Of a stretch of 64,000 nucleotides of DNA, positions 13,016 to 39,629 are shown piece after piece. The position numbers and the translations under genes are program-made. The notes under the pieces are model-generated. The model did not search any database. It was given only the letters and a program-made list of their open reading frames with translations, and had not been told where the DNA came from. Positions within the stretch are counted from its first letter, which is position 1. Every line of letters starts with the position of its first letter. This DNA comes from Butyrivibrio sp. (GTDB lineage Bacteria > Bacillota > Clostridia > Lachnospirales > Lachnospiraceae): the NCBI RefSeq assembly GCF_015056685.1, contig NZ_SVFW01000006.1, positions 44,522 through 108,521 on the forward strand, written 5' to 3'.

Positions 13016-13044
13016 TTTCAAAAAACAGTATTTAGCCGTATAAT
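13016..13044 (+). promoter_or_regulatory. Candidate sigma-A promoter of clpP (TTTCAA-17-TATAAT)
   Basis: Perfect -10 at 13039-13044 and a weak -35 at 13016-13021. Confidence 0.4.
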
Positions 13045-13089
13045 ATAGTGTGGTTGTGTATAGTTTTTTAGCTGTGCAGACCACACTAT
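13045..13089 (+). promoter_or_regulatory. 10-bp inverted repeat overlapping the predicted clpP transcription start
   Basis: ATAGTGTGGT (13045-13054) and ACCACACTAT (13080-13089). Either an operator or a 5' UTR hairpin. It does not match the CtsR or CIRCE consensus. Confidence 0.3.
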
Positions 13090-13143
13090 TTAGGTTTAGT
13101 GGTAAATAATGCTTTTTGATAAGGCAAGGTTGGAGGACAGATA

Positions 13144-13746
13144 ATGAGTTTAATACCTTATGTCATTGAACAAACAAGCCGTGGAGAGAGATCTTATGAT
13201 ATTTACTCCAGACTTTTAAAAGAAAGAATCGTATTCCTTGGTGAGGAAGTTAATGCTACATCAGCAAGTATTGTTGTTGCACAGCTTCTTTTCCTTGAGG
13301 CAGAGGATCCTAACAAGGATATCCACATGTATATCAACAGCCCAGGAGGAGAGATCACTTCCGGAATGGCTATCTACGATACAATGCACTACATCAAGTG
13401 TGATGTAAGCACAATCTGTATCGGTATGGCTGCCAGCATGGGTGCATTCCTTCTTGCAGGTGGTGCAAAGGGGAAGAGAATGGCACTTCCTAACGCTGAA
13501 GTTATGATCCATCAGCCACTTGGCGGAACACAGGGCCAGGCTACAGAAATTGAGATTGCTGCAAAGCACATCCTCAGAACAAAAGAGAAGATGAACAGAA
13601 TGCTTGCAGAAAATACAGGAAAGACATATGAGCAGGTTTGCGCAGATACAGAGCGTGATAACTGGCTTTCAGCTCAGGAAGCTCTTGACTACGGTCTTAT
13701 CGATTCAATCATTGAGAATCGTCCTGTAGAAAAGGAATCTAAGTAA
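13144..13746 (+). CDS. clpP: ATP-dependent Clp protease proteolytic subunit
   Basis: [19 protein letters not shown], active-site context [14 protein letters not shown], and MIHQPLGG. Confidence 0.95.
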
Positions 13747-13760
13747 TCAAAGGAGATGTT

Positions 13761-15029
13761 ATGGCAGGAAAAAATTCCGGAGAGATCAGGTGCTCTTTTT
13801 GTAACAAGACACAGGATCAGGTAAAAAAGTTAATAGCAGGACCTGCAGGAGTATATATTTGTGATGAATGCGTTGAGATATGCGCAGATATCATAGAGGA
13901 AGAGTTCGAGGACGAGCCTGTCGCAGCCAGCGAAAAGAACATCAATCTTCTTAAGCCGGTTGAGATCAGAAACTTTCTTGATGAGTATGTAATCGGACAG
14001 GATGAAGCTAAAAAGGTTTTAGCAGTTTCTGTTTATAACCATTACAAGAGAGTTCTTGCTCCTAAGAGCGAGGACAAAAACGATGTTGAGCTTCAAAAGA
14101 GTAACATTATCATGATCGGACCTACAGGTTCAGGTAAAACATATCTTGCACAGACACTTGCCAAGATCATAAATGTTCCTTTTGCTATCGCTGATGCTAC
14201 TACTCTTACTGAGGCAGGTTATGTTGGTGAGGACGTTGAGAATATTCTCCTTAAACTTATCCAGAATGCTGACTACGATATTGAGAGAGCTCAGTACGGA
14301 ATTGTTTATATCGATGAGATTGATAAGATCACTAAAAAGAGTGAGAACGTATCTATAACAAGAGATGTTTCAGGTGAAGGTGTACAGCAGGCACTTCTTA
14401 AGATCGTAGAAGGTACTGTTGCAAGTGTTCCACCTCAGGGCGGAAGAAAGCATCCTCATCAGGAGCTTATCCAGATTGATACAAGCAATATCCTCTTCAT
14501 CTGCGGCGGTGCATTTGATGGTCTTGATAAGATTGTTGAGGCAAGACTTGACAGAAATTCAATCGGATTCAATGCAGAGATTGCTGATAAGTCAGAAAGA
14601 GAGATCGGAGAGGTCCTTAAAGAGGTAACACCTCAGGATCTTGTTAAGTTTGGTCTCATTCCTGAGTTTGTAGGACGTGTGCCGATCACAGTTACTTTGG
14701 AAGGTCTTTCCAAGGAAGCTTTGGTCAAGATCCTTACAAAGCCAAGGAATGCCCTTGTTAAGCAGTATCAGAAGCTCTTTGACTTCGATGATGTTAAGCT
14801 TACATTCGAGGATGAAGCAGTTCAGAGAATTGCAGAGATGGCTTACGAGAGAGAAACAGGAGCCCGTGGACTTCGCTCCATTATGGAGAAGACTATGATG
14901 GATGTTATGTATCAGATTCCTTCTGATGACACCATCAGCGAGTGTGTTATCACAGATGCTTCTGTAGATGGCACAAGCCAGCCACTCATCGTCCACAAGG
15001 ACAGCAAGAAATTAAAACAGGCTAAATAA
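13761..15029 (+). CDS. clpX: ATP-dependent Clp protease ATP-binding subunit ClpX
   Basis: N-terminal zinc ribbon CSFCNK..CDECV, Walker A GPTGSGKT, Walker B YIDEIDK. Confidence 0.95.
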
Positions 15030-15036
15030 AAAATAA

Positions 15037-15079
15037 AAGCTGTGAGAAATGAGAGATCATTTTTCACAGCTTCTTTTTT
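15037..15079. terminator. Bidirectional terminator between convergent clpX and engB
   Basis: AAGCTGTGAGAAA ... TTTTTCACAGCTT hairpin flanked by A- and T-runs. Confidence 0.7.
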
Positions 15080-15686
15080 AAGCTTCAGTTGAAGGAGATG
15101 CTTCCGTGAGCAGTTCATCCATGAAGTCGTAGATTTCCTGTCTGCCTTCTTTGGATAATGCTGAATATGGGAAGATTTTAATTTCATCAGGAAGGCCAAG
15201 GCCGTTCCTTAACATGTTCAGGTGCTTCTCGCGCTGAGAAGGCTTGATCTTATCAGCCTTGGTTGCAATGATAACCGGCTGGAAGCCCTGATGAACGATC
15301 CATTTGTACATCTGAACGTCGTTGGCTGAAGGTTCGTGACGAATATCGATAAGAAGGAAAACTCTAAGGAGCTGCTTGGATGTGTGGAGATAGTTCTCAA
15401 TCATTTTTCCCCACTGTTCCTTAACCTTTTCAGGAACACGAGCAAATCCGTATCCCGGAAGGTCTACAAGGTAGAACTCGTTGTTTATATTGTAGTAGTT
15501 GATTGTCTGAGTCTTTCCAGGCTCCTGTGAAGTTCTGGCATAGTTTTTACGATTCATTATGCCGTTAATGAGTGAGCTTTTGCCTACATTACTTTTTCCT
15601 GCGAAGGCAAATTCAGGAAACTGATTGTCTGGAAGTGTGCTTGTGATTCCACAAACTGTTTCAAGATTTACATTTTTAATAACCAT
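15078..15686 (-). CDS. engB: Ribosome biogenesis GTP-binding protein YihA/YsxC
   Basis: G1 GKSNVGKSSLIN, G3 DLPGYG, G4 TKADK. Confidence 0.9.
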   Translation of the reverse strand: MVIKNVNLETVCGITSTLPDNQFPEFAFAGKSNVGKSSLINGIMNRKNYARTSQEPGKTQTINYYNINNEFYLVDLPGYGFARVPEKVKEQWGKMIENYLHTSKQLLRVFLLIDIRHEPSANDVQMYKWIVHQGFQPVIIATKADKIKPSQREKHLNMLRNGLGLPDEIKIFPYSALSKEGRQEIYDFMDELLTEASPSTEA

Positions 15687-15789
15687 GCTATTCTCTCTAT
15701 TCTTTGTAATTGATGCTTAACAATAATCATTGATTAAGTTAAAATTTAAGGTGAATGTTAATACATTATAGCATATTCGGAGGCAGAGT

Positions 15790-16389
15790 ATGGAAACACT
15801 TAAAAAAATGAAGTTAAATTACGTGATTGAAGCCATTGTGATGATTGCTATAGGTGCTGTTCTTATATTCTGGACAGAAGCGAGCCTTCTCATCATGGCG
15901 AGAGCGTTGGCAATCCTGCTGGTAATAGCAGGTGTGATATTTGTATTCAGCTATTTTTTGCATAAAGAGCGCAGCATTGTGATGTCAGGCGGTTTTGCAA
16001 TGGGAGTTATTATTGCAGCCATTGGCGTTTGGATCTTCCTTAAGCCTGATACATTTACCGATTTTATCCCCAAGCTCTTTGGCGTATTTATCCTGCTTAG
16101 CGGACTTATGAATCTGGGACAGACAATCTCTCTTGTCAGCTACAGATATTCGCTTTGGTGGATCTCATTGATCCTTGCAGTAGGAACTATCGGTATGGGA
16201 GCATTTCTTTTGTTTAATCCTAAGGATGCAAAAGAAATAGCGGTGACTATCATCGGAATATTCCTGGTTTATGATGGAATCACCAATCTGTGGACAATAT
16301 CAAGAGTCTCCAAGTATGCAAAGAGAGTTAACCAGGAGATGAATGCTGTCGATGTTGAAGCAGTTGTTGAGGATGTAGATAAAAAGTAA
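15790..16389 (+). CDS. HdeD/DUF308 family membrane protein
   Basis: About six hydrophobic helices with the repeated DUF308-like pattern (GIFLVYDGITNLW). Confidence 0.6.
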   Translation: METLKKMKLNYVIEAIVMIAIGAVLIFWTEASLLIMARALAILLVIAGVIFVFSYFLHKERSIVMSGGFAMGVIIAAIGVWIFLKPDTFTDFIPKLFGVFILLSGLMNLGQTISLVSYRYSLWWISLILAVGTIGMGAFLLFNPKDAKEIAVTIIGIFLVYDGITNLWTISRVSKYAKRVNQEMNAVDVEAVVEDVDKK

Positions 16390-16411
16390 TGCCGGAAATT
16401 GAGGAATAATA

Positions 16412-17602
16412 ATGACATTTGAACCAATAGAGGTATCGCTTGATGAGGGCTGCATTGATGCTTTCATCAGGCGATATCATTTTAATGACAATGAAAAAGC
16501 AGAAATAATAAGAATTTACAGGAAGATTGCTCCAAGAGTTCATGCTATTTTTCACCATATCATCGAAGAGGATGAAGAGGGAAAAAAGTCTGCACTTGTA
16601 GTAGCAAGTCTTGGAAGAGCAATTGATGAGTTTCAGAATAATCTTTTGGAAAAGGGAAATATTCAGGAAGCCTATATTGTTGATTGTCTGGGACTGGATT
16701 TTTTATCACTTGCCTATGAAAAAATAGATGAAAAGCTCCATGAGTCCACAGGTCTTTATGCCGGAGGATATCAGTTTGCAGGAAGTGATGACTTTCCGCT
16801 TGAAAGTATTCCTGAAGCCATGAAAAAGCTTGGACAAAAGAAAATAAGATATAATGACGCCTTTGTGCTTGTTCCCAAAAAGAGTGTTGTGTTTAGGACT
16901 CAACTATTTGAAAAGCAGCAGGAAAAGCATTCCAAGTGTAGTAGCTGCAGCGCTGAAAAATGCGTATACAGGACAAGTGAGTATGCCGGAGCTACAAGAG
17001 TTTTGAAAGATAATGCAGATGTGAAAATAGATTTGTCGAAAGAGAAGAGAGAAAACATGGGAGACGGTGATAAGAGGGCAAAAGGCCTGATCCACCTTTA
17101 TACCGGCGATGGCAAGGGCAAGACTACAGCATCTATCGGACTTGCCATAAGAGCAGCAGGTTCCGGCAAAAAAGTTGTATTCACCCAGTTCATGAAAGGA
17201 AGACAAACATCAGAACTAAACTCTTTTGCCCTGATCCCGAATATTAAAGTCATAAGAAGTGATAAAAACCTCGGCTGGTTCAAAAAGGACTCGGAAGACT
17301 CTGTATCCGCGTTTACCGGCGAACACAACAGAATCCTTACAGAAATAGAAAAACTCGTAAGTAGTGGAGAGTGTGACGTCCTTGTCATGGATGAATCCAC
17401 CTATCCCTACAATTACGGGATTATTGATAAGGACAGATTTGAAGCTTTGATACTAAACAAGCCTGCCTATATGGAAATTGTTTTAACAGGTAGAAATGCA
17501 CCTGACTTTTTTATTGATAATGCAGATTATATTACAGAGATGAAGAAAATAAGGCATCCTTACGACGAAGGCATTGAAGCGCGCCTGGGCATTGAATATT
17601 GA
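16412..17602 (+). CDS. Fusion protein: N-terminal methionine-synthase-activation-like domain plus C-terminal cob(I)yrinic acid a,c-diamide adenosyltransferase (CobO/BtuR type)
   Basis: C-terminal half has KGLIHLYTGDGKGKTTASIGLAIRAAGSGKKVVFTQFMKG and DVLVMDE. The assignment of the ~200-aa N-terminal domain rests on my recollection of the family only. Confidence 0.65.
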   Translation: MTFEPIEVSLDEGCIDAFIRRYHFNDNEKAEIIRIYRKIAPRVHAIFHHIIEEDEEGKKSALVVASLGRAIDEFQNNLLEKGNIQEAYIVDCLGLDFLSLAYEKIDEKLHESTGLYAGGYQFAGSDDFPLESIPEAMKKLGQKKIRYNDAFVLVPKKSVVFRTQLFEKQQEKHSKCSSCSAEKCVYRTSEYAGATRVLKDNADVKIDLSKEKRENMGDGDKRAKGLIHLYTGDGKGKTTASIGLAIRAAGSGKKVVFTQFMKGRQTSELNSFALIPNIKVIRSDKNLGWFKKDSEDSVSAFTGEHNRILTEIEKLVSSGECDVLVMDESTYPYNYGIIDKDRFEALILNKPAYMEIVLTGRNAPDFFIDNADYITEMKKIRHPYDEGIEARLGIEY

Positions 17603-17675
17603 TTATCCAATAAAAAGGGAGAGTATTATGGTTTTAAACATTTTGTTTTTGCCAGAATACTCTCTCTTTGTATGA

Positions 17676-17737
17676 GGGTAAGCACCTAGCGGTGTGGCTG
17701 GTCATTATGCCTCGGGCTCTGAATCCAGGAACAGTAG
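17676..17737 (-). ncRNA. Truncated left arm (5' third only) of the structured arm motif
   Basis: The reverse complement aligns with the first ~60 nt of the other arms (CTACTGTTCCTGGATTCAGAGCCCGAGGC..CCAGCCACACCGCTAGGTGCTTACCC). The remainder is deleted next to TTTGTAT. Confidence 0.5.
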
Positions 17738-17759
17738 GGGTGGCTACTTTTCTGACTAT

Positions 17760-17996
17760 GGGTAATTTTTTAATATTCCGACCTTTTACCCGTGTTTTGT
17801 TAGTACCCATGGGCAATATTTAATTTTCTCTGCCTTTTACCCGAGCTATCAGACATTCATTGGGTAAATCTATTATTTTTTTCATATTTGCCCAAGCTTG
17901 TCCAATAATTCTCGGGTAATAATCATCTCTTTTATTTCCTTACCCAAATCATACACTAACTCATGGGTAAAAACCTGCATTTTGTTCTTTTTGCCC
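17760..17996. repeat. Array of five hairpin units, GGG(T/C)AA-N20-22-TT(A/G)CCC, period 51-52 bp
   Basis: GGGYAA begins at 17760, 17811, 17862, 17914 and 17965. Partners are at 17786, 17837, 17888, 17940 and 17991. Confidence 0.8.
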
Positions 17997-18170
17997 GCAA
18001 TGCTCTTTAAAAATGGACAATACGAGACCATGATTTGAGACCAAAACACTTTTATTGGCACTTTCAATTGGTCCATATAAGATAAATCAGGCTGTTTATA
18101 ATAGAGTTATCTTATATACACAGTTGGCCGAAGACATTGCAACGCAGAGCCGCTTATGCCTCTATGTTAT

Positions 18171-18256
18171 GCACGCCGTCCAGGGAAAATCTATTCTAGC
18201 GTGCCTTGCATCCATATACCTTGCACGCAATCTGATAATAATTCACTTTAGCGTGC
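18171..18256. repeat. Two GCACGC-N22-GCGTGC hairpin units, period 52 bp
   Basis: GCACGC at 18171 and 18223; GCGTGC at 18199 and 18251. Confidence 0.7.
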
Positions 18257-18288
18257 ACGAAGCATCTGTTCAGGACAGTCATATCCTA

Positions 18289-18483
18289 CTACTGTTCTCG
18301 GATTCAGAGCCTGAGGCAGAAAAAACCAGCCACACCGCAGGTGCTTGCCCTTTACTGGTTCTGATGGAAACGCTACAATACCAGGTCCGACGGTGAGTGA
18401 AGAATTACTGTTCCCATCATCCTCACCGTCGGCAAGGTATAGACGGCGTTTCCATCAGGTTCAGTCAAGGGTGGCGCACGCAG
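18289..18483 (+). ncRNA. Right arm of copy 1: ~195-nt candidate structured RNA (unknown class)
   Basis: Starts CTACTGTTCTCGG and ends GGTGGCGCACGCAG. Nested helices carry perfect compensatory variants relative to the other copies (CTGATGGAAACGC / GCGTTTCCATCAG). Confidence 0.55.
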
Positions 18484-18584
18484 CCGATTCACTTACGCAC
18501 ATACAAAAGGAGAGTATTTTAGCAAGTATTAAACACTTATCCACATAAAAGGTAGATGGAGAGTATTCTAATATGCAGTAAATT

Positions 18585-18631
18585 AAAAACCAATCGAGAT
18601 CTAGCCATAGCTATGTGCTCGATTGGTTTTT
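18585..18631. terminator. Bidirectional terminator downstream of the MCP gene
   Basis: AAAAACCAATCGAG ... CTCGATTGGTTTTT. Confidence 0.75.
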
Positions 18632-18658
18632 ATCTTAGCGCTCGCAAGAAAATATGGA

Positions 18659-20392
18659 TTATGAAGGCATTTCTTCCAATGTGAAGAATGCCATTTTTTC
18701 GTTGAGGGTTTCAGCCATGTCACGAAGATCATTTGCTGCACCACTTATGAGAGAAAATGTAGCATTGAGTTCTTCCATTGAAGCATTTGTTTCCTCTGTA
18801 GAAGCGGCATTTTGCTGAGATATAGCAGAAAGCTCTGTGATAATGTCTGAAAATCCTGCCTTAAGCTCATTAAGAAGATGAATTTTCTTGGATATTACCT
18901 TTGTAGAATTGTCTACATTGTTGACGTTTTCTACAACTGCATCCATATCATCTTTTGTAGTATTGAGCTGAGTATTCTGCTCCTGCATGCTCTTTCCGAG
19001 CTCTTCAATAATTTCAACGTTCTTCTGTGACTCTGCAACAAGATTTTCCACTATTTCCTTGATTGAAACGGCAGCGTCCTTTGACTGCTTTGAAAGGTTA
19101 CCAATTTCAGTAGCAACTACTGAGAAACCTTTTCCGTATTCGCCAGCTCTTGCTGCCTCAATTGAAGCGTTAAGAGAAAGAAGATGTGTCTGTTCAGCAA
19201 TTGCAGTAATCATGTTTGAAGCTTCTGCGATGCTCTTAACTGAATCATTAGTAGTGCGAATCTGTGTATGAATGTCTTTCATTGAAGTCATGACATCTTT
19301 ATTTTTACCCATAAGGTCATGAAGTGTATTTACAGTTCTCTGAGCACCTGACATCATTTCATTAGCAGAATTTGAAAGGTCTTCTATTTTTTCTGTAATT
19401 TCGTCAATACTGTCGCCCATCTGGTTAGTATTAGCTACAGAATTTTCCATGCTCTCAGCCTGAGAAGCAGCTCCACGGCTGATATCCTCTACAGCAGCTG
19501 TTATCTGTTCAGCTACATTAGAAGCAGATTCAGCAGAAGATGCAAGCTTTTCACCGGAAAGAGTTACATCATCTGAAAGCTTTTTAGTTGCGCTGATTAC
19601 ATCCTGAAGTTTGTCACGAACCATAGCGGAACTTTCTGCAATTACACCAAGCTCGTCCTTACGGTTGAATGTACGATCATTGATGTAGAAAGAAAGTTCA
19701 CCATCTTCAAGATTTTTAAGACCTGATACAATATCGCGGATTGATCTTGATGAAGTGCTTATAAGATAACGAGCTACACCAAAGTTGAACAGGAAAAAAC
19801 CAATGAATGTAAAAATAATAGAACGAAGCGCTGCGTCCATATTTGCTTTTACGATAGTAGTATCACGTCCTGCAAAAACCATACCAACAACAGAACCATC
19901 AGAGTTCTTAAGTGGAAGATAGTATGCGTACCAATCCTGACCTGCAATCTCAAAATTTGAAGCAAGATATTCATTTCCACTTGTGAGAACTTCGCTTACA
20001 ACTGTCTCTGAAGCTTTTGTTCCTTCCATTCGCTGACCTGTAGTTGCGTCTGTAAGAGATGTAACAAAACGTGTATCACCATAAAATAATGTATAGTGCA
20101 TACCGGTTTTCTCATGGAGTGCATCAAGCTGTGCCTGGTAAATGTCGTGAACTGCTACGTCACCTTTCATAAGCTGGCCATCCTCTGAAAGAGTCCAGTC
20201 ACCTTCAAACTGATTGGATACTTCATCATTTAAAAGAACTGCCGCTGCATGCAAACCCTCTGAAAAAGAAGTGAGATAAGCTTTCTGAATGTTTCTAAAG
20301 CCTATGATACCAACACATGCTGCCATAAGAAGGGCAAGAACTGATGCGATAACAATTATAGTGCGAACCATGTTTCTGTTTTTTGTTTTCAT
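18659..20392 (-). CDS. Methyl-accepting chemotaxis protein with Cache-like sensor domain
   Basis: N-terminal TM helix, an extracytoplasmic ~170-aa sensor, a second TM helix, HAMP, and a conserved MA signalling hairpin ([27 protein letters not shown]). Confidence 0.9.
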
Positions 20393-20443
20393 TTTTGTGT
20401 TTCCTTTCCTTTAATCCTCTAACTCTCGAACCCCTTTTTATTT

Positions 20444-20477
20444 AACAAAAAAGCACGGAACGAAATGTCCCGTGCTA
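20444..20477 (-). terminator. Intrinsic terminator forming the expression platform of the c-di-GMP-I riboswitch
   Basis: The minus strand reads GUAGCACGGgacauuucguuCCGUGCUUUUUUG, about 50 nt upstream of the MCP start codon. It may also stop clpB read-through. Confidence 0.7.
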
Positions 20478-20494
20478 CAAAAAAACCTAATTAA

Positions 20495-20575
20495 AGGTGC
20501 AACTGGCTGACATTTTAAAGTCCCTATAGCTTTGCGCCACAGGCTTTCGCCTGCTTTGCCAAATGTTAAATTTTA
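20495..20575 (-). promoter_or_regulatory. c-di-GMP-I (GEMM-I) riboswitch aptamer in the MCP leader
   Basis: The minus strand reads UUUGGCAAAGCAGGCGAAAGCCUGUGGCGCAAAGCUAUAGGGAC...CAGCCAGUUGCACC. It has the GGCAAA element, a P1 hairpin with a GAAA tetraloop, the (G/A)CGCAAAGC core and the AGCCAGUUGC 3' element of the GEMM-I consensus. Confidence 0.75.
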
Positions 20576-20586
20576 AACTATCGAGA

Positions 20587-20615
20587 ATTATAATGTACAG
20601 TTCCGGTTAATGCAA
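20587..20615 (-). promoter_or_regulatory. Sigma-A promoter TTGCAT-17-TATAAT driving the riboswitch/MCP transcript
   Basis: On the minus strand the -35 is at 20615-20610 and the -10 at 20592-20587. Confidence 0.6.
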
Positions 20616-20691
20616 TATTAATTTTTTGTTTATAAAAAATTTATAAATCGTGCACATGAAAAAAGAAACACATGGCAGCATTTTGGTTATT

Positions 20692-23289
20692 TTATACAAA
20701 AGACTCCGTTTTAGCGATAAGCTCGCCATTTTCCACATCAAAGATGATGGTGTCATGAGGCTTTACCTTATCTTCAAGAATAATCTTGGCAGAAAGAGTT
20801 TCAACATATTTCTGGATATAACGCTTAAGCGGCCTTGCACCATATATAGGATCATAAGCGTTATCAATTACGTAGTCTTTGGCAGCATCATTAAGCTTGA
20901 TACTGATTTCTCTATCAGCAAGACGTTTGTTAAGATCTGCAATTACCAGATCAACAATTCCACTTATGTTGTTCTTGGTAAGAGGCTTAAACATAATGAT
21001 TTCGTCAAGTCTGTTCAGGAACTCGGGTCTAAAGTGAGAACGCAAATCTTCCATTGTGGCCTTTTCAGCATCTTCACTTATTGAACCGTCATCTCTGATA
21101 CCATCAAGCAGATACTGAGCTCCAATATTTGAAGTCATTATCAGGATAGTATTCTTGAAATCTACAGTTCTTCCCTGTGAATCAGTAATTCTTCCGTCAT
21201 CAAGCACCTGAAGAAGAATATTGAATACATCAGGGTGGGCTTTTTCTATCTCATCGAAAAGAACTACAGCATAAGGTTTTCTACGAACTGCCTCAGTAAG
21301 CTGACCACCTTCCTCATAACCTACATATCCTGGAGGTGCTCCTATAAGCCTGGACACACTGTATTTTTCCATGTATTCGCTCATGTCAATTCTGACCATG
21401 TTGTTCTCATCGTCAAAAAGTGACTGGGCAAGACTTTTGGCAAGCTCTGTCTTACCAACACCTGTAGGGCCAAGGAAGAGGAATGAGCCAATTGGCTTAC
21501 TTGGATCCTTGATACCGGCCTTAGATCTCATTATGGCCTCAGATACCTTTACAACGGCATCATCCTGACCAATTACTCTCTGATGAAGCTCATCAGGAAG
21601 ATGAAGAGTTTTGTTTCTCTCACTCTCTGTAAGCTTGTTTACAGGAATGCCTGTCCATCTGCTGATGATTCCGGCAATTTCGTCCTCTGAAACTTTTTCG
21701 TGTACAAGGGCACCGTCTGCCTCTTTTTCTTTGGCTTTTTCCTCAGCCTCTTCAAGCTGTTTTTTGAGAGCAGGGAGCTTTCCATACTGGAGCTCACCGG
21801 CTTTCTCATAGTCGCCATCTCGCTGGGCGATGGCAATCTCTGAATTGATGGTATCAATCTGTTCACGCATTGCTGCAAGCTTATCTACAGCTTCTTTTTC
21901 ATTGGACCACTGAGCTTTTCTGGTATCAAAGTCTTCCTTAAGCTCAGCAAGCTCTTTTTGCAGGTTAGCAAGTCTTTCTTTACTCAGAGAATCATCTTCC
22001 TTTTTTAGGGCTGCCTCTTCAATCTGCAGCTGCATGATTTTACGGTTAAGTTCATCAAGCTCGGCAGGCATTGAATCCATCTCAGTCTTGATGAGAGCAC
22101 AGGCTTCATCCACAAGGTCGATTGCCTTATCTGGAAGAAATCTGTCAGAAATGTACCTGTTGGATAAAACAGCGGCACTAACAAGAGCACTGTCCATGAT
22201 CTTAACGCCGTGGAAGACTTCATATCTCTCTTTTAATCCACGAAGGATACTGATGGTGTCCTCAACTGTAGGCTCTTCAACCATAACAGGCTGGAAACGT
22301 CTCTCAAGAGCGGCATCCTTCTCAATATACTGTCTGTATTCATTGAGGGTAGTAGCGCCGATGCAGTGGAGCTCGCCTCTTGCAAGCATTGGCTTAAGCA
22401 TATTGCCGGCATCCATGGCACCATCTGTTTTACCTGCACCTACAATAAGATGAAGTTCATCTATGAAAAGAATTATCTCTCCATCGGAGGCCTTGACGTC
22501 CTCAAGGACTGCCTTTAATCTCTCCTCGAATTCGCCTCGATACTTGGCACCGGCTACCAGTGCACCCATATCAAGGGAAAAGATCTTTTTATCCTTAAGA
22601 GCAGTTGGCACATCACCGCTTGCAATTCTCTGGGCAAGGGCTTCAACGACTGCAGTCTTGCCGACACCGGGCTCACCGATAAGAACAGGATTGTTCTTGC
22701 TCTTTCTGGACAGGATCCTGATCACATTTCGGATTTCTGTGTCTCTTCCTATTACAGGGTCAAGCTTTTGCTTTTTGGCTTTTTCTACCAGCTCTGTGCC
22801 ATATTTACTTAAGGTGTCATAGGTTGCCTCAGGGTTGTCAGTTGTGACATTTCTGTTGCCTCGTACCTCTGAAAGGACCTGAAGGAATCTGTTCCTGTCG
22901 ATACCAAATTCTCTGAAGATCTCTTTTACTTCTCTGTTGGGCTTCTTAATAAGAGACATAAACAGATGCTCGACGGATACGTACTGATCTCCAAGAGCCT
23001 TGGCTTCATCCTCGGCAGACAAAAGAGCTTTGTTGAGATCTGCTCCGATGTAGGGCTGCCCGCCGGAAACTTTGGTTCTCTTTTCAATGGCGGAGATTAT
23101 CCTGTTTAGGAAAGTTTCCTTATCTATGCCCATTTTCTCTATGAGCTTAGAAATAAGGCTGTCCTCAATAGTCATGAGAGAGTACAGAAGGTGTTCCTGT
23201 TCAATCTCCTGATTTCCATATTCAATAGCCACTTTTTCGCAGCCATTGACAGCTTCGATAGATTTTTGTGTGAATTTCTGTATATTCAT
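20692..23289 (-). CDS. clpB: ATP-dependent chaperone ClpB
   Basis: 865 aa with two AAA+ modules ([16 protein letters not shown]), a coiled-coil middle domain and a Clp_N repeat. Confidence 0.95.
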
Positions 23290-31632: not shown

Positions 31633-32334
31633 ATGGCAAAGGCTGCTACAGTACCGGTAAGAGTCGAAAAAGTTCTGGCCGGGCGAAAGATAATTGAGCT
31701 TAATTATCAGGAAATATATGATCATAAGCCCAACATTTATAAGTGGATAAAAAGGGTGTTTGATATAGTCGCATCAAGCGTCGCGATTATCATTCTCTCG
31801 CCCATATTTATAATGACAGCTCTGGCTATCTTTTTGGAGGATGGCGGTCCTGTTTTCTTTACCCAGCAAAGAGCGGGTAAAGACATGAAGAGCTTCAAAA
31901 TATATAAGTTCAGAAGTATGTACAAAAATGCTGAGGCTCAGTTTGAGAGAATGCAGGCACAGAATGAACAGACAGGTCATGCTTTTAAAATCAAGAATGA
32001 TCCAAGAGTTACCCACGTGGGGAAGTTCATAAGGCGCTACTCTATAGATGAACTTCCACAGCTTTTTAACATCATAAAGGGCGACATGAGCATTGTAGGA
32101 CCAAGGCCAATACTTACATCTCAGATGGAGGCATGCAATGCTTACGAGAAACAGCGAACCATCGTAAAGCCCGGACTTACCTGCTACTGGCAGGTATGTG
32201 GGAGAGCCAAGATCAAATGGGATAAGTGGGTTGAACTTGATCTTCAGTATATTCAGGATATGAGCATTGCAAAAGACATAGAGCTAATTTTCCGTACATT
32301 TCCGGCAATCTTCGGCCAGGACGGAGCGTACTAA
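31633..32334 (+). CDS. Undecaprenyl-phosphate sugar phosphotransferase (bacterial sugar transferase, WbaP/EpsL-like)
   Basis: Contains PRVTHVGKFIRRYSIDELPQLFNIIKGDMSIVGPRP. Confidence 0.85.
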   Translation: MAKAATVPVRVEKVLAGRKIIELNYQEIYDHKPNIYKWIKRVFDIVASSVAIIILSPIFIMTALAIFLEDGGPVFFTQQRAGKDMKSFKIYKFRSMYKNAEAQFERMQAQNEQTGHAFKIKNDPRVTHVGKFIRRYSIDELPQLFNIIKGDMSIVGPRPILTSQMEACNAYEKQRTIVKPGLTCYWQVCGRAKIKWDKWVELDLQYIQDMSIAKDIELIFRTFPAIFGQDGAY

Positions 32335-32346
32335 AAAAGTAGAATG

Positions 32347-32379
32347 GGCCTACACAGATAGATTGTGTAGGTCTTTTTT
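32347..32379 (+). terminator. Terminator of the sugar transferase gene
   Basis: CCTACACA ... TGTGTAGG hairpin followed by TTTTTT. Confidence 0.7.
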
Positions 32380-32395
32380 ATTGTGATTTAAGAAA
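32374..32395 (+). repeat. Left copy of the 22-bp direct repeat bracketing element copy 2
   Basis: TTTTTTATTGTGATTTAAGAAA, identical to 33453-33474. Confidence 0.85.
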
Positions 32396-32430
32396 TGTAT
32401 TCCTGTGTATAAACGTAAGTATTGCGCTTA

Positions 32431-32625
32431 CGTACGCCACCATTGACTGAACCTGAGAATAACGCCGTCTATACCTCGCCGACGGTGAGGATGATGGGAA
32501 CAGTAGTTAGATTCATGCACCGTCGGATTCAGCATTATAGCGTTTTCCTCAGAACCCGTCAATGGCTAGCACCTGGCGGTGTGGCTGGGAATTATTGCCT
32601 CGGGATCCAATTCCGAGAACAGTAG
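32431..32625 (-). ncRNA. Left arm of copy 2 (structured arm motif, minus sense)
   Basis: The reverse complement aligns base-for-base with 33167-33361 and with the arms of the other copies. Confidence 0.55.
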
Positions 32626-32643
32626 GGGGTACTTTCTATCTAC

Positions 32644-33100
32644 GGGTAATTTTTTAATTTTCTGACCTTTTGCCCGTATTTTCATAGTATCCATGGGCAA
32701 TATTTAATTTTCTCTGCCTTTTACCCGAGTTATCAAACAATCATTGGGTAAATCTATCATTATTTTCATATTTACCCAAGCTTATTCAATAATTCTCGGG
32801 TAAAAATCATCTCTTTTATTTCTTTACCCTCGCGTCATGTCGAAAAAGATGTACAAGACATGAATAATAGAATAAATGCCAGATCTCATGCCAAACGATT
32901 CTATTCAAGGCATGAAATTATGAGAAAAATCTGACACAGCATGTCGAATTACAAAACAAAGACATGGTATCTGAGTCAAAATCACTAACAACATGTCTGA
33001 ACCACTATACAAAGCATGTAATACTTGCAAAAAATCCTCAAATCATGTCAGAAGCCTATGCACAAGGCATGAAAATCGAGAAAAATCTCTCGCAGCATGC
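32644..33100. repeat. Array of four GGGYAA/TTACCC units followed by five to six CATG(T/C)C/G(A/G)CATG units, period 51-53 bp
   Basis: Unit starts: 32644, 32695, 32746, 32798, 32836, 32887, 32940, 32992, 33044, 33095-33096. Confidence 0.8.
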
Positions 33101-33166
33101 TATAGCCAGGTAAATCTTTATGTTTTCAATATCCCAAGTCTCCAGCTGATTCAATTTCAGCCATCT

Positions 33167-33361
33167 CTACTGTTCTCGGAGTCAGAGCCAGAGGCAATTG
33201 TACCAGCCACACCGCAAGGTGCTTGCCATTGACGTGGTCTGAGGAAAACGCTACAATGCTGCATCCGACTGTGAGATAGAATCTACTGTTCCCATCATCA
33301 TCACCGTCGGCGAGGTATAGACGGCGCTTTCCGCAGGTTCAGTCAATGGTGGCGTACGCAG
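33167..33361 (+). ncRNA. Right arm of copy 2 (structured arm motif, plus sense)
   Basis: Runs from CTACTGTTCTCGGAG to CAGTCAATGGTGGCGTACGCAG. Confidence 0.55.
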
Positions 33362-33452
33362 CCGCAATCTAAAATTTTTAGAGAGTTAGAGAAGTCACTT
33401 ACGCATATACAAAATGTAAGTATCCTTCGAAAGCTTTGCATCACCTTTATAA

Positions 33453-33474
33453 TTTTTTATTGTGATTTAAGAAA
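33453..33474 (+). repeat. Right copy of the 22-bp direct repeat bracketing element copy 2
   Basis: TTTTTTATTGTGATTTAAGAAA. Confidence 0.85.
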
Positions 33475-33522
33475 GTTATTTCTTTTTAATGATAGTTAAT
33501 GTTCATTTAATTGTATTTTTTC

Positions 33523-33531
33523 GGGGGGGGG
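33523..33531 (+). repeat. Homopolymeric G9 tract in the putative promoter region of the 33609 gene
   Basis: The sequence ttgtattttttcGGGGGGGGGtagact lies 78 nt upstream of the start codon. Confidence 0.9.
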
Positions 33532-33608
33532 TAGACTAGAAGTGTAACTGTGTGGGATGGCTTTTGATATAAAAAGCCAGAGGTTCTCTTTGAAAGAGAG
33601 GTAAATTG

Positions 33609-34742
33609 ATGAAACTAAGTAGATTATTTGCGGTCGCTTTAAGCGGATTGCTGTTTATTCAGGCACCGGTTGTTGTGTTGGCAGAGGAATCTTATCAGGA
33701 TGGTAATTTGTATAAGTGTGATGATGAAAAAGAAGACTACTTATTTGTAGGGCATAATGGTTTTTTCTTATCTGAAGATGAACATCAAGATTATGAAAAA
33801 GTTTATGATACAGGAAGCGCTTTTAAAGAAGTCACAGATGATAGTGCCGATGGCAAAGAATATGGAGCAGGCTATGCCTTTGATTGTCAACAGAGTCCAA
33901 GTTCCGGCTATGTTGGTGGACTAACATCAAATTTGGTTGGGTTTGAGACGACCTTGTCAGAAGACCAAGTGGTAAAACTTCAATATATCGGTAATGAAAC
34001 TGATAAACCTTATAGATTGAGCCTGACAACTGCTTCATCCGAATCAGGAACAAGTGGTGGTGAAGAAGGACAATCATCAGGAGAATCAGGAGAACAGGGA
34101 ACGACTACAGAGCCAATTACAGAACCCACTTCGGAGTCAACTACAGAACCTACCACAGAACCTACTACGGAGCCAACTACAGAGCCAACTGTAGAGCCAG
34201 CACAGCCAGAAACTCCAGCAGAAGAAAATGTAGAGCCTACACCAGTTGTTGTAACTGAAAATACCAATAATAGTCAGCCTGCAGCACCAGCTGATGAACC
34301 ACAGCAGCCAGCAAATCAGGAACCTCAGGCGCCTGATACGACAGGTAGGATCAATATAATAAGCACAGCAGTAGGCAATGCACTTCCAACTACTGAACTT
34401 GGAAACGCAGAGGTTCCTACCAGAACATTGTCTCTTGATATATTTAGTATTACTCCTGCCCAAATGACAGCAGCAGTAAGCGATACAGTAAAAAGTGCGC
34501 CAGCAGATGGAAATGTAGTTATTGAAACAAATACTATCTCATGCCTTGATAATAATATGGTTCAGGCGTTTGCACAGAGACCGGACGTTGCTATCAGCAT
34601 AGTATTCAAAAATAAAGAAGGACAAAAACTAAAAGTAACAATTCCTGCCGGATATCCTGTTACAACTCTTCTTGATGAAAATGGTTACTGCGGATATATG
34701 CACCTTGTAGATATTTTTGGTGCTACTGTTCTGTCAGAGTAA
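33609..34742 (+). CDS. Secreted protein with (TEPT)n linker, unknown function
   Basis: Signal peptide MKLSRLFAVALSGLLFIQAPVVVLA, a TEPTTEPTTEPTTEPTVEP repeat, and AGAGAGG before ATG 33609. Confidence 0.65.
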   Translation: MKLSRLFAVALSGLLFIQAPVVVLAEESYQDGNLYKCDDEKEDYLFVGHNGFFLSEDEHQDYEKVYDTGSAFKEVTDDSADGKEYGAGYAFDCQQSPSSGYVGGLTSNLVGFETTLSEDQVVKLQYIGNETDKPYRLSLTTASSESGTSGGEEGQSSGESGEQGTTTEPITEPTSESTTEPTTEPTTEPTTEPTVEPAQPETPAEENVEPTPVVVTENTNNSQPAAPADEPQQPANQEPQAPDTTGRINIISTAVGNALPTTELGNAEVPTRTLSLDIFSITPAQMTAAVSDTVKSAPADGNVVIETNTISCLDNNMVQAFAQRPDVAISIVFKNKEGQKLKVTIPAGYPVTTLLDENGYCGYMHLVDIFGATVLSE

Positions 34743-34785
34743 GATTTAGAAATTGCTAAAATGGATTAGAATTGATGATTATTAC

Positions 34786-34818
34786 GAATGCTTACGCCAC
34801 CGGCGTAAGCATTCTTTT
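34786..34818 (+). terminator. Terminator of the 33609-34742 gene
   Basis: GAATGCTTACGCC accg GCGTAAGCATTC followed by TTTT. Confidence 0.75.
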
Positions 34819-34896
34819 ATTATCAATTCACAATTGTTAAGGGTATACAAAGCATTCGAGGGGGAGTGGTTTGGATAAACGTAAGTATTGCGCTCC

Positions 34897-35088
34897 TATA
34901 CGCCACCATTGACTGAACCTGAGGAAAACGCCGTCTATACCTCGCCGACGGTGAGAATGATGGGAACAGTAATTCTTCACTCACCGTCGGCCCCAGCATT
35001 GTAGCGTTTTCATCAGAACCAGTAAAGGGCAAGCACCTAGCGGTGTGGCTGTTTTTTCTGCCTCAGGCTCAAAATCCAGGAACAGTTG
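34897..35088 (-). ncRNA. Left arm of copy 3 (minus sense)
   Basis: The reverse complement aligns with the other arms. It looks chimeric: the 5' half resembles arm 1R and the 3' half resembles arm 2L. Confidence 0.5.
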
Positions 35089-35110
35089 AGGCGGACGCTT
35101 TTCTACCTAC

Positions 35111-35353
35111 GGGCAATTTTTTAATTTTCCGACCTTTTACCCGTGTTTTATTAGTGCCCATGGGTAATATTTAATTTTCTCTGACTTTTACCCGAGTTAT
35201 CAAACAATCATTGGGTAAATCTATCATTATTTTCATATTTACCCAAGCTTATTCAATAATTCTCGGGTAAAAATCATCTCTTTTAGTTCTTTACCCAAAT
35301 CATTCACTAAACTAACTCATGGGTAAAAACCTGCATTTTGTTCTTTAGTACCC
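35111..35353. repeat. Five GGGYAA-N20-22-TTACCC hairpin units, period 51-52 bp (last interval 56)
   Basis: Starts at 35111, 35162, 35213, 35265 and 35321. Confidence 0.8.
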
Positions 35354-35585
35354 GCAATGCTCTTTAAAAAAATGGGTCAAGTCCTATTTTATAAGCTAAA
35401 TCAGGCTGTTTATAATAGAGTTATCTTATATGCACAGCTGGCCGTAGACATTGCAATGCATAGTCGCTTATACCTCTTTGTTTTGCATGCTTGATCATAC
35501 ATCTATCTTTTAGGCAGTAAGGCAATGTATGTTAAATTGAAGAGATAAGCTCCTCATATCGAACTTGCAAATTATCATCTATCCT

Positions 35586-35783
35586 TTACTGTTCTCGGAT
35601 TCAGAGCCCGAGGCACTTAAAACCAGCCACACCGAAGGTGCTTGCCCTTGACGGGTTCTGAGGGAAACGCTACAATGCTGAATCCGATGGTGAAAGAATC
35701 TATCTACTGTTCCCATCATCCTCACCGTCGGCTCGCAGGCCAGGGCGTTTTCCCTCAGGTTCAGTCAGGGGTGGCGTACAGAG
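35586..35783 (+). ncRNA. Right arm of copy 3 (plus sense)
   Basis: Runs from TTACTGTTCTCGGATTCAGAGCCCGAGGC to CAGTCAGGGGTGGCGTACAGAG. It carries compensatory changes and G.U pairs. Confidence 0.55.
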
Positions 35784-35914
35784 CCAATTTACTTATGTTT
35801 TTCAATCTTCATAATCAACAAAATTCATCTATTATTCTTATCAAATTTACACTATAGACTAACGCAATATCGCATGAGTACAATTAATTCATCGATATTC
35901 TTGGGGAGGTCTAT

Positions 35915-39328: not shown

Positions 39329-39347
39329 GCGATATAAGGATTCAAGT

Positions 39348-39383
39348 AGATACAAAGCTGTGCTTGCACAAAGCTTTGTATCT
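39348..39383 (+). terminator. Hairpin terminator after the GH31 gene
   Basis: AGATACAAAGCT ... AAGCTTTGTATCT followed by ATTTG (a weak T-run). Confidence 0.5.
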
Positions 39384-39629
39384 ATTTGAAGACTGAACGG
39401 ACATGAGGAAGTAGCACGATAGTGCGGATTCCGAATGAGCGTAGGATTGCGAGAACGAAGTGTAGCAATCCGTATATCGCGAAACAAATAATTTGTTGTG
39501 CAACGTGCATATAATTTTTAAGGAATATCAATATTTTGTGTCCAATATTTACAGAGGTACAAAATAACGATATAATAAATTATGGTATTTTTATACAAAA
39601 GCCTGCAATTAAACTTAGGAGGGAAAGAA

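Follow-up and report, generated by a model that had tools for sequence, protein, structure and literature searches.

Non-coding intergenic elements with mirrored arms and central hairpin arrays in Butyrivibrio genomes

The window under study, that is, the whole 64,000-nt stretch of Butyrivibrio sp. DNA that was analysed, harbours a non-coding element at positions 32374-33474, between the intrinsic terminator of a sugar-transferase gene and a gene at 33606-34742. An earlier reading of the sequence alone had described it as a gene-free block with two mirrored arms, and both points were borne out: the longest ORF in the element has 79 aa, and the two arms are connected by three pairing blocks with 84-91% complementarity. 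A coding potential of the arm was rejected, since its 67-aa frame is lost in other copies, where it is broken by a 2-nt indel. All the described features lie where stated, give or take a few bases, although other copies reach further out, to a terminal hairpin module. The features of the element and its flank are as follows.

32346-32379, plus strand: intrinsic terminator of the sugar-transferase gene (terminator scan), in the flank and outside the element, its T-run overlapping the start of the left 22-mer
32404-32420, plus strand: left outer motif, in the variant form TGTGTATAAACGTAAGT; the terminal hairpin module present in most other copies is lost here
32425-32630, plus strand: left arm, the 205-nt module on its inward-reading strand (nhmmer, 224 bits; included in the 109-arm alignment)
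32534-32562, minus strand: putative outward sigma-70-like promoter in the left arm (TTGACG, 17 nt, TATAAT; 11/12 in the promoter scan)
32642-32832, plus strand: array 1, four GGGYAA-N20-TTRCCC hairpins (GGGTAA...TTACCC) with a period of 51-53 nt, the inward strand being T-rich
32836-33100, plus strand: array 2, five to six CATGYC-N15-GRCATG hairpins (CATGTC-N15-GACATG) with a period of about 52 nt
33161-33364, minus strand: right arm, an inverted copy of the 205-nt module (nhmmer, 222 bits)
33229-33257, plus strand: putative outward promoter in the right arm (TTGACG, 17 nt, TACAAT), facing the gene at 33606-34742
33397-33452, minus strand: right outer segment, with the motif TTTGTATATGCGTAAGT and a 39-nt terminal module (AAAATTATAAAGGTGATGCAAAGCTTTCGAAGGATACTTACA)
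32421-32506 with 33283-33368: arm pairing block 1, 91%
32518-32588 with 33203-33273: arm pairing block 2, 90%
32594-32625 with 33167-33198: arm pairing block 3, 84%

The centre of the element had been taken for a single array of 51-53-bp hairpin units; the period was confirmed, but two distinct arrays lie end to end. Array 2 goes with the right arm, and both together were 90-93% identical to at least seven contig ends of strain AE2015. The left arm with array 1 matched the left half of the element spanning 34870-35797 at 87% identity along ~425 nt. Across the copies, the hairpin units fell into at least six families of 27-36 nt with 15-22-nt centres, appearing in runs of up to seven with periods of 51-52, 63 and 74-75 nt, and they were confined to the elements. 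Their palindromes were GGGTAA..TTACCC, CATGTC..GACATG, GGGATAA..TTATCCC and CGGATAA..TTATCCG, and also ATGACCTA..TAGGTCAT and GGGCATATA..TATATGCCC. The G+C content was 29-34% in the arrays versus ~50% in the arms, and the inward-reading strand was T-rich in 82 out of 106 arrays. The units inside one array are direct tandem copies; moreover, homologous arrays at different loci had loops and linkers of the same content in the same order, the arm-proximal units being common and the differences consisting of truncations at the far end. Regarding promoters within the arrays, no clear excess was found on either strand at 9/12, while at 10/12 there was a small outward excess (19 vs. 5), which homologous copies may inflate.

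The element is flanked by an exact 22-nt direct repeat, TTTTTTATTGTGATTTAAGAAA, found at 32374-32395 and 33453-33474 (both on the plus strand) as had been reported. The proposal of a long target-site duplication, or of an att core, was not supported, as only one out of 23 arm pairs, the present one, has a long flanking repeat; the longest flanking direct repeats of the other pairs measured 7-11 nt, which is the range of mismatched left/right controls, in a test that duplications of ≤4 bp in A/T-rich DNA could escape. A 20-nt flanking repeat at locus L015 was an artefact within the palindromic outer hairpin, and no short duplication was found at the ends of L015 and L034, both of which keep the two terminal modules. 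Furthermore, the counterpart in strain Su6 lacks the left copy of the 22-mer and retains the right one with a single change, and the empty allele found in sister strains is without the 16-nt part ATTGTGATTTAAGAAA. On these four grounds, a long target duplication or att core was rejected as a feature of the family, and the 22-mer is best taken as a local duplication peculiar to this copy.

Three further copies had been reported in the window, and all of them were present, though the left arm of the one near 17610-18585 is cut down.

17610-18585: second element, with a terminal hairpin, only the last 70 nt of the left arm (17675-17743) and five GGGTAA units (17760-17996)
Right half of the second element: a unique segment, then the full right arm (18285-18486) and the outer motif (18491-18507)
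34870-35797: third element, with the left arm (34892-35094), GGGTAA units (35111-35296), a unique segment and the right arm (35582-35787)
62330-63878: fourth element, the most complete, with terminal hairpins at both ends and outer motifs at 62387-62403 and 63805-63821
62482-62685 and 63454-63658: arms of the fourth element

The third element contains a fifth, looser GGGTAA unit reaching ~35347. The fourth element sits between convergent genes, its hairpin beginning 22 nt past the stop codon of a peptidase gene with no intervening terminator; its centre is made of nested GGGCATATAGC/GGCCACC palindromes, and a 55-nt module appears in duplicate at 63686-63794.

A profile search recovered at least 113 full arms in the genomes of four Butyrivibrio species, with dozens of copies of the non-coding element per genome, each of 1.0-1.6 kb with two mirrored arms around hairpin arrays. 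At least 27 convergent arm pairs were identified, with 370-2070 nt between the arms (four pairs with one cut-down arm), and apparently solo arms were really elements with an internally deleted partner arm. The arm pattern occurred in at least 89 chunks of the genome collection and, among the matches listed, all but two chance ones belonged to B. proteoclasticus P18, Butyrivibrio sp. Su6, Butyrivibrio sp. AE2015 and the metagenome-assembled genome RGIG9232. The suggestion that this was not a known family was in agreement with Rfam 15, where no match reached the gathering scores and those with E-values up to 10 were at chance level only. Moreover, no element match was found in PLSDB or in the GenBank phages (blastn, distant mode) and the arm core was absent from IMG/VR, so a plasmid or phage origin was discarded. 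Such repeats go unmentioned in two Butyrivibrio genome papers, and the family is apparently undescribed so far.

As the sequence-only reading had stated, there is no transposase or integrase gene in the window, according to Pfam scans of the ORFs checked and to precomputed Pfam annotation. Likewise, no recurrent partner protein was detected among 461 flanking ORFs of at least 100 aa from 89 loci (~600 kb); their clusters comprised only ABC transporters and AraC regulators (the two largest clusters being named by Pfam representatives), and a linked protein gene was rejected on this basis. No arm pair around a transposase of its own was found in the same 89 loci. The sole transposases seen, an IS3 inside locus L066 and an IS30-like gene beside locus L035, were insertions into or next to elements, and L066, with its 2-kb interior, was consequently dismissed as an autonomous copy. 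In terms of genomic position, 84 arms faced the 3′ end of a gene and 25 a 5′ end (77% at 3′ ends).

Near-consensus promoter motifs were found within the arms. A sigma-70 match of at least 10/12 (TTGACG, 17 nt, TAcAAT) was present in 95 of the 109 aligned arms and faced outward. In particular, the −35 box was TTGACG in 93 arms, the spacer was 17 nt long in 103 and the −10 box was TA(c/a/t)AAT in 107, with position 3 being nearly the sole variable one. From these consensus matches, we infer that the arms carry putative outward-facing sigma-70 promoters. Furthermore, about 65 arm columns were invariant in more than 100 copies from four species, for which passive recombination offers no obvious account.

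The outer motif TTTGTATATGCGTAAGT, already pointed out as lying outside the arms, occurs six times in the window with up to three mismatches, where 0.17 occurrences are expected by chance, and only at the ends of elements. In the whole family, it was found at 80 out of 111 arms, 66 of these 80 having a strong hairpin just before it; for the outer hairpins in the window, the predicted energies lie between −30 and −33 kcal/mol and the z-scores between −5.2 and −6.2. Most element ends have a strong hairpin followed by a U-rich tail, both reading inward, and by its match to the consensus the hairpin together with TTTGTATATGCGTAAGT looks like an intrinsic terminator for incoming transcription. The terminal modules are inverted (TGTAGATTAGGGAGAG...CTCTCCCTAATCTACA), and full-length copies thus have TG...CA tips. 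In Su6, the counterpart carries the 39-nt terminal module (AAAATTATAAAGGTGATGCAAAGCTTTCGAAGGATACTTACA) at either end.

The chromosomal sites of elements were conserved between species, the contents of the elements being less so than the surroundings. For 27 orthologous flanks with 80-99% identity, the identity was just 78-97% in the arms and 7-95% in the outer modules, and the inner arrays were unrelated in 21 out of 24 orthologous-flank comparisons. The loci L040 and L048 had both flanks and both end junctions in common with different interiors, while only one flank was common at L026 and L034. In addition, all nine B × D combinations of arm patch alleles were present. A slow evolution of the arms by purifying selection, suggested by one counterpart pair, was rejected because in the 27 pairs the arms differ as much as those of paralogues, contrary to this idea.

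An occupied/empty polymorphism, which had been proposed as a check on mobility, was indeed found; it concerns, however, a 3.4-kb block of two elements and a gene and not the element alone. This block (32380-35797) is composed of the present element, one gene and the next element, the right end of which is the right edge of the block. In the empty allele, the T-run of the sugar-transferase terminator is joined directly to the DNA upstream of an esterase gene. The two alleles differ by a cluster of substitutions beside the junction, which points to homologous replacement, and not to insertion or excision, as the origin of the empty one. The second element of the window is 100% identical in a sister strain without the block.

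Tentatively, and with slightly less than even confidence, these elements are read here as resident, non-coding, modular and recombining intergenic mosaics with insulator-like signals in a small rumen-dwelling clade of Butyrivibrio. Each element is made of two half-units placed head to head, each of them read inward as a hairpin plus TTTGTATATGCGTAAGT, optional small hairpin modules, the 205-nt arm and an AT-rich array of 27-36-nt units; the putative outward arm promoters would form a divergent promoter pair. Given these outward promoters and the inward terminator-like ends, we infer a symmetric gene-end insulator, in which incoming transcription would be stopped and outgoing transcription started, the latter being antisense to the neighbouring gene in about three quarters of cases. 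The central palindromes, spaced at 5, 6 or 7 helical turns, would lie between the divergent promoters, where the DNA would be negatively supercoiled, and may serve for protein binding or cruciform extrusion, although the 52/63/74 periodicity could be a coincidence (p ~0.02-0.05, a rough estimate). Copies would spread and diversify mostly via ectopic homologous recombination and gene conversion; an exchange of modules was observed, in that the arm patches appear in every combination and a given site can have entire arrays and outer modules replaced.

If this reading is true, the elements would be an unrecognised large intergenic repeat system of a rumen fibre-degrading clade, its copies numbering dozens to probably hundreds in each genome, and a Firmicute counterpart of the mosaic repeats of Neisseria and enterobacteria, its unusual logic being an inward terminator, an outward promoter and phased palindromes between them. 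Many adjacent genes could then be subject to antisense transcription driven by the elements. Moreover, the 52/63/74-nt periods and the near-invariant arm would provide an entry point for finding a protein that reads the element.

Among the known systems, the NIMEs of Neisseria (dRS3 plus RS units) are non-coding intergenic arrays composed of short inverted repeats interspersed with variable segments of many families; they are syntenic between strains with dynamic content, lie near variable surface-structure loci and rearrangements, are entered opportunistically by IS elements and consist of GC-richer segments in alternation with AT-richer ones (PMC1797815). The Butyrivibrio elements are alike in having same-site arrays with differing content, IS insertions, GC/AT alternation and an association with variable loci. 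In contrast, there is no sequence relation, two 205-nt inverted arms with putative promoters and terminator-like end hairpins always bracket the Butyrivibrio arrays, and their palindromes of 27-36 nt at fixed periods of 52/63/74 nt differ from the 20-nt dRS3 (ATTCCC-N8-GGGAAT). The Butyrivibrio host is a Firmicute in which natural transformation is not known. The Correia repeat-enclosed elements (CREEs) of Neisseria are also non-coding with inverted ends, often near genes, whose expression they affect (PMC1797815), and the Butyrivibrio elements share the first three traits. They are, however, ten times larger, with array interiors and no target duplication found. CREEs measure 100-160 bp, are MITE-like with a TA target duplication and carry promoters at their ends. 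The BOX repeats of S. pneumoniae consist of boxA, a variable number of boxB and boxC, with ends of ~50-60 nt that are not mutually inverted. Both BOX and the bcr repeats of the Bacillus cereus group resemble the present family as modular, non-coding, multi-copy Firmicute repeats with stable folds; to our knowledge, they have no sequence similarity to it and no comparable pair of promoter and terminator has been described for them. Finally, unlike an integron cassette array, the units measure 52-75 nt without ORFs, and no integrase was found among the ORFs checked in the window.

A non-autonomous transposon, such as a large MITE or foldback element, is an unlikely explanation; the arms or the terminal modules would be the inverted repeats for a transposase encoded elsewhere, and the interior would be a passenger. 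The inverted ends, with a TGTAGATTAGGGAGAG start, the complementary end and TG...CA tips, are what it would predict, and so are dozens of copies per genome without an ORF and the breaks of assemblies within elements. Furthermore, a single genome has half-units of ~400 to >560 nt that are 87-93% identical at many of its loci, so something copies half-units. However, both a target duplication and an autonomous relative were sought and not found, the former in the 23 arm pairs (bar the 22-mer) and at L015 and L034, the latter in the 89 loci. The common sites with swapped contents across species indicate old residents, not recent jumps, and the sole empty allele found is the one attributed to homologous replacement. 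Typical MITEs are, moreover, much smaller, a size of 1.0-1.6 kb with 205-nt arms being far beyond theirs.

It is likewise unlikely that the elements are a dedicated chromosomal device and not junk, built of promoter-driven supercoils, phased palindromes and shielding terminators or, in a variant, of arms that represent more than 100 paralogous RNAs of ~200 nt with hypervariable loops. If that were true, supercoils pumped into the array would drive cruciform extrusion or cooperative protein binding, and each genome would contain more than 100 topological insulators and recombination hotspots, promoting the exchange of cassettes at surface-polysaccharide and other loci.

A structured RNA family alone, in which the arms would be genes or processed parts of ~200-nt RNAs with more than 100 paralogues and hypervariable loops and the arrays would belong to the same transcripts, appears rather improbable. 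The arm folds far better than shuffled sequences on both strands (z-scores of −6.3 and −4.3), a strong putative promoter lies within it, and its variation concentrates in four predicted loops, the stems and one 22-nt loop segment being invariant; for instance, a GCACC/GGUGU hairpin combines an invariant stem with a loop that varies in length and sequence. Compensatory double changes were found at pairs 19-143, 35-127 and 37-125, each in 6-7 arms of one subfamily, and at a fourth pair in two arms, and the wobble-type mismatches on the inward strand (91 A·C vs. 26 G·U), along with the A-richness, favour the outward-reading strand. These compensatory changes and the wobble bias are a hint of a single-stranded RNA or DNA form, of which the mosaic model has no need. 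The array hairpins might, in turn, be protein-binding or stabilising. Against this, the overall covariation was weak, with 97.0% of cells pairing vs. 96.4% in shuffles and double changes in only 4 out of 46 pairs, mostly from one subfamily, and quasi-palindrome correction during replication can create the same double changes. The predicted start site is inside the arm; a transcript from the arm promoter would be devoid of the 5′ strands of the long helices, and its sequence was not unusually structured (z-score of +1.05). Moreover, no Rfam family was found, the wobble pairs of the array hairpins showed no strand bias (76 vs. 87, with a noisy detector), and periods of whole helical turns argue for a role at the DNA level. 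The complementarity of the variable patches to their own flanks and arrays was no greater than to those of other copies, and the idea of guide RNAs was rejected for being at the control level.

Very unlikely are single-stranded DNA units, either REP/REPIN-like or IS200/IS605-like (PATE) handled by a Y1 (HUH) transposase, or sites recognised by an IS110-type recombinase. An inverted pair would give one active strand for either fork direction, there is neither target duplication nor coding content, the wobble mismatches are strand-asymmetric, and hairpins with conserved stem bases and variable loops appear at the ends and in the arrays. In addition, a phage recombinase in Neisseria uses the small palindromes within NIME arrays as integration sites (PMC1797815). 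The extragenic position at gene 3′ ends (84 vs. 25) recalls REP/BIME sequences, which are also clustered imperfect palindromes, of the 20-40-nt class. BIMEs probably act in the stabilisation or termination of transcripts, and binding of DNA gyrase and IHF is ascribed to them; successive palindromes in a BIME have opposite orientations, and RAYT transposases are associated with them. In contrast, the present units are direct tandem copies with long conserved arms, and no RAYT or other partner recurs in the 89 loci. Similarly, PATEs share subterminal hairpins and the lack of a target duplication, but the ends of IS200/IS605 elements are not inverted repeats, while those found here are true and symmetric ones that include asymmetric sequence. 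As no partner recurred among the 461 ORFs, no recurrent Y1 or IS110-type candidate emerged from the 89 loci. A related idea of a single-stranded promoter or sso, based on TAGCGT in the arm and a hairpin over the −35 box and spacer, was discarded, as no workable template geometry was found.

Practically no credence is given to the idea that the arrays store guide RNAs or immune memory in a CRISPR-like or TIGR-like manner, the arm being their leader or scaffold, which a conserved flank beside a regular array and the alternation of short conserved with variable segments might suggest. It is already contradicted by loops and linkers conserved in the same order between loci, by the absence of cas, tas or other recurrent genes nearby, by the lack of any match of the element in the phage, plasmid and viral collections, and by variable patches with no complementarity signal.

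Returning to the mosaic reading, elements also mark breakpoints of synteny and border a variable polysaccharide (exopolysaccharide) locus. Draft assemblies break within them, and the elements would be the main cause of assembly fragmentation in these genomes.

The ORF-free element at 32374-33474 was found to be assembled from modules, namely two inverted copies of a 205-nt arm, an interior of palindromic arrays and terminal modules outside the arms. The three further copies in the window proposed by the sequence-only reading were recovered by a profile search and when the element was compared with the whole window by BLAST. The elements and their parts were the following:

17610-18585: first copy; full right arm 18285-18486, left arm reduced to 17675-17743 (BLAST and profile search)
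32374-33474: element under study, bracketed by an exact 22-nt direct repeat (32374-32395 and 33453-33474)
32642-32832: its array 1, four GGGTAA...TTACCC hairpins
32836-33100: its array 2, five to six CATGTC-N15-GACATG hairpins
34870-35797: third copy; arms 34892-35094 and 35582-35787 (profile search)
62330-63878: fourth copy; arms 62482-62685 and 63454-63658 (profile search)

Several claims of that reading were borne out. The 22-nt repeat was exact in the sequence and by a repeat finder, and the inverted arms comprised three paired blocks of 86, 71 and 32 nt, with complementarities of 91%, 90% and 84%, respectively. The element had no credible ORF, a 67-aa frame across the arm being disrupted elsewhere in the family through an indel of 2 nt; neither transposase nor integrase appeared among the window ORFs checked, and Rfam 15 gave no match to the element. 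The hairpin units described between the arms were also present, but they formed two distinct arrays placed end to end and not a single one.

A pattern built from two conserved arm blocks was searched against a species-representative genome collection, where at least 89 chunks matched. The matches listed were confined to four Butyrivibrio species genomes, save two chance hits (Segatella and Flavobacterium). A total of at least 113 full arms was found by profile search, with at least 41 in Butyrivibrio sp. Su6, 29 in Butyrivibrio sp. AE2015, 21 in Butyrivibrio proteoclasticus P18 and 9 in a water-deer rumen Butyrivibrio MAG. At least 27 convergent arm pairs were present (four with one cut-down arm), with inter-arm distances of 370-2070 nt, while solo arms were only apparent, as the partner arm was internally deleted in these elements. 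Many contigs of AE2015 and Su6 break off within an element, a few hundred bases in, so that these repeats are a main cause of assembly breaks. No element match was found in PLSDB plasmids, GenBank phages or IMG/VR, and such repeats go unmentioned in two Butyrivibrio genome papers. Overall, we file the elements as a new intergenic mosaic repeat family.

Of the functional signals in the element, a putative promoter in the arm, recognized by its consensus match, was the clearest. Every arm carried a near-consensus sigma-70 promoter on the strand reading outward, away from the element centre. In the alignment of 109 arms, the -35 box was TTGACG in 93 and the spacer 17 nt long in 103, while the -10 box was TACAAT (94 arms), TAAAAT (10) or TATAAT (3); 95 arms scored at least 10/12. 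The common -10 variation was confined to position 3, the least critical of that box. Moreover, mean column identity was 87% and about 65 columns were invariant, the variation falling into four short patches (columns 44-56, 82-95, 163-177 and 181-195). Since the alleles of these patches were observed in every combination, the arms are mosaics.

The arm also showed internal symmetry, with an interrupted long helix that paired the -35/spacer region with a downstream segment and enclosed a 9-bp hairpin, whose loop opened with an invariant 22 nt. Both strands folded far better than shuffled sequences (z-scores of -6.3 and -4.3). Wobble-type mismatches on the inward strand were 91 A.C versus 26 G.U, a bias towards G.U on the outward strand. 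Covariation support was weak, with 97.0% of cells pairing vs. 96.4% shuffled and compensatory double changes at only 4 of 46 pairs, mostly within one subfamily. An RNA from the predicted start would be devoid of the 5' half of that helix; its folding was not unusual (z-score of +1.05). An arm RNA and a single-stranded-DNA substrate each have some observations in their favour. The preferred mosaic-repeat reading accounts neither for the near-invariance of the arm nor for the compensatory changes and the strand asymmetry.

The interior arrays were built from hairpin or palindrome units of six families or more. In each, the stem base was conserved and 6-9 bp long, the centre measured 15-22 nt and the linker 20-40 nt; in the GGGCATATAGC/GGCCACC family, long palindromes were nested. 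Array periods were sharply defined in all of these families: 51-52 nt (GGGTAA), 51-53 nt (CATGTC), 63 or 74 nt (GGGATAA), 74 nt (ATGACCTA) and 75 nt (CGGATAA). These periods lie near 5, 6 and 7 turns of B-DNA, which would suit phasing at the DNA level, the chance of a coincidence being roughly estimated as low. The G+C content of the arrays was 29-34%, compared to about 50% in the arms, and the T-rich strand read inward in 82 of 106 arrays. In the window, array units were found solely inside the four elements. At seven or more AE2015 loci, there was sequence with 90-93% identity to the right half of the element under study; homologous arrays had their arm-proximal units in common and differed at the far ends. 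Arm and adjacent array thus travel together, the element consisting of two half-units joined head to head.

Outside the arm, the motif TTTGTATATGCGTAAGT appeared in 80 of 111 copies. In the window, as the sequence-only reading had noted for the element ends, it occurred six times with up to three mismatches, solely at those ends (chance expectation, 0.17). A strong hairpin preceded it in 66 of the 80 copies, with a median of -24.7 kcal/mol versus -12.1 in random windows; the end hairpins in the window reached -30 to -33 kcal/mol (z-scores of -5.2 to -6.2), and a U-rich tail followed them in the inward direction. Judged by consensus, this anatomy would be that of an intrinsic terminator acting on transcription that comes in from the adjoining gene. 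The hairpin of the fourth copy began 22 nt past the stop codon of the peptidase gene, the stretch between them holding no further terminator. The copy under study no longer has a terminal hairpin at either end. Full-length copies started with (C/T)TGTAGATTAGGGAGAG, and extra small hairpin modules could lie between terminal module and arm, such as a 55-nt unit duplicated at 63686-63794.

The elements were located mainly downstream of genes, as 84 outward-facing arms met a gene 3' end and 25 a 5' end, counts that span orthologous sites in four related genomes and whose entries are not independent. They often lay between convergent genes, and the window genes were of housekeeping, glycoside-hydrolase and capsule type. 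When 461 flanking ORFs were clustered, the sole families that recurred were ABC transporters and AraC regulators.

The 22-nt repeat had been interpreted as a long target-site duplication or att core, which did not hold for the family. Across 23 arm pairs, the longest flanking direct repeats were 7-11 nt, equal to mismatched flanks; longer ones were seen solely at the element under study (22 nt) and at one other pair, where the repeat was an artefact within a hairpin. Two copies with both terminal modules had no short duplication either. In the Su6 counterpart, the 22-mer (one change) occurred on the right side only, the left carrying an inverted 39-nt terminal module, and a 16-nt part of the 22-mer, ATTGTGATTTAAGAAA, was absent from an empty allele; the 22-mer is therefore a local, one-off duplication. 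A transposon mobilized in trans has some observations in its favour. An occupied/empty polymorphism, which the sequence-only reading had taken as bearing on mobility, does formally exist, but through another mechanism and with a unit larger than the element. Metagenome contigs with an identical esterase presented two alleles, one identical to the window and one in which 32379 was fused directly to 35798, so that the T-run of the transferase terminator met esterase-upstream DNA. The absent 3.4 kb comprised the element under study, the gene 33606-34742 and the next element. Over 12412-21602, a span that takes in the first element, the empty-allele strain matched the window at 100% identity, and all its differences fell in 32271-32372 and at 35813, beside the junctions, which points to allelic replacement by homologous recombination and not to excision or insertion. 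Neither target duplication nor partner gene was present in the data at hand.

Modules were shuffled at fixed sites. For 27 arms with an orthologous distal flank (80-99% identical), arms were 78-97% and the outer 150 nt 7-95% identical, while the inner arrays were unrelated in 21 of 24. In particular, one Su6 and one P18 locus (L040 and L048) had both flanks and both junctions in common and differed in modules, patches and the whole interior. Thus, the elements are old residents of their sites, with contents exchanged among copies. They also coincided with rearrangement points, being linked to synteny breaks and to a variable polysaccharide locus; two loci (L026 and L034) were 98% identical on one flank and had nothing in common on the other.

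In the mosaic-repeat reading, the outer hairpins would terminate incoming transcription, the arm promoters would drive outward transcription, running antisense to the adjoining gene at some three quarters of the arms, and the palindromic centre would lie between divergent promoters. Negative supercoiling between divergent promoters is predicted by the twin-domain model. The centre may bind a protein or extrude cruciforms, and ectopic recombination among copies may maintain and diversify the family. Among known systems, the element comes closest to Neisseria NIMEs (PMC1797815), enterobacterial BIMEs and Correia elements, which work alike in several respects, although sequence-defined tests of membership were negative and the element adds promoter-bearing arms and fixed periods. 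Ordinary IS were inserted into or beside elements, as in NIME arrays: an IS3-type OrfA/OrfB (locus L066, 2828-4341) and, by eye, an IS30-like transposase (locus L035, ~2560-2908).

Other observations were made around the elements. The block 32380-35797, which lies where the capsule/EPS locus ends, was either present in full or missing in full among otherwise 100% identical strains; its 378-aa gene had no Pfam match and carried TEP-type 12-nt tandem repeats (34104-34199). A homopolymeric G tract (33523-33531) between the element and this secreted repeat-protein gene (33606-34742) is a candidate site of slipped-strand phase variation, judging from its sequence: it was G9 in the window and locus L092, G8 in the otherwise identical L091, and TGTGGGGAGGG in Su6. 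Upstream of the esterase gene, TTTTCAATCTTCAT was a fixed boundary (window 35798 onward; loci L012, L030 and L090). Each of four genomes had a different content before it, namely an element, other genes over 4.7 kb, the terminator of another gene or that of the transferase. In MAG RGIG9232 (locus L060, ~3900-5100), three copies of another repeat of ~130-150 nt (ATGACATCTTGAACTAAAT...GCGGATTTCGTG...GGCTTGGTTGAT...) surrounded a tRNA-like sequence immediately inward from an element, and similar sequence lay upstream of the L063 arm. Furthermore, the window held:

5058-10178: gene of a 1706-aa protein, with Pro/Glu-rich tandem repeats at 9003-9118
10175-12126 (-): RsgI-like anti-sigma factor and sigma-70-family (SigI-like) gene pair, beside the former
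18659-20392: methyl-accepting chemotaxis protein gene, its 3' end abutting the element 17610-18585
20495-20570 (-): c-di-GMP-I riboswitch (RF01051; 54.5 bits), upstream of the chemotaxis gene
39330-39479 (+): Clostridiales-1 RNA (RF01699; 108 bits, E = 1e-23), between GH31 and sugar-binding-protein genes
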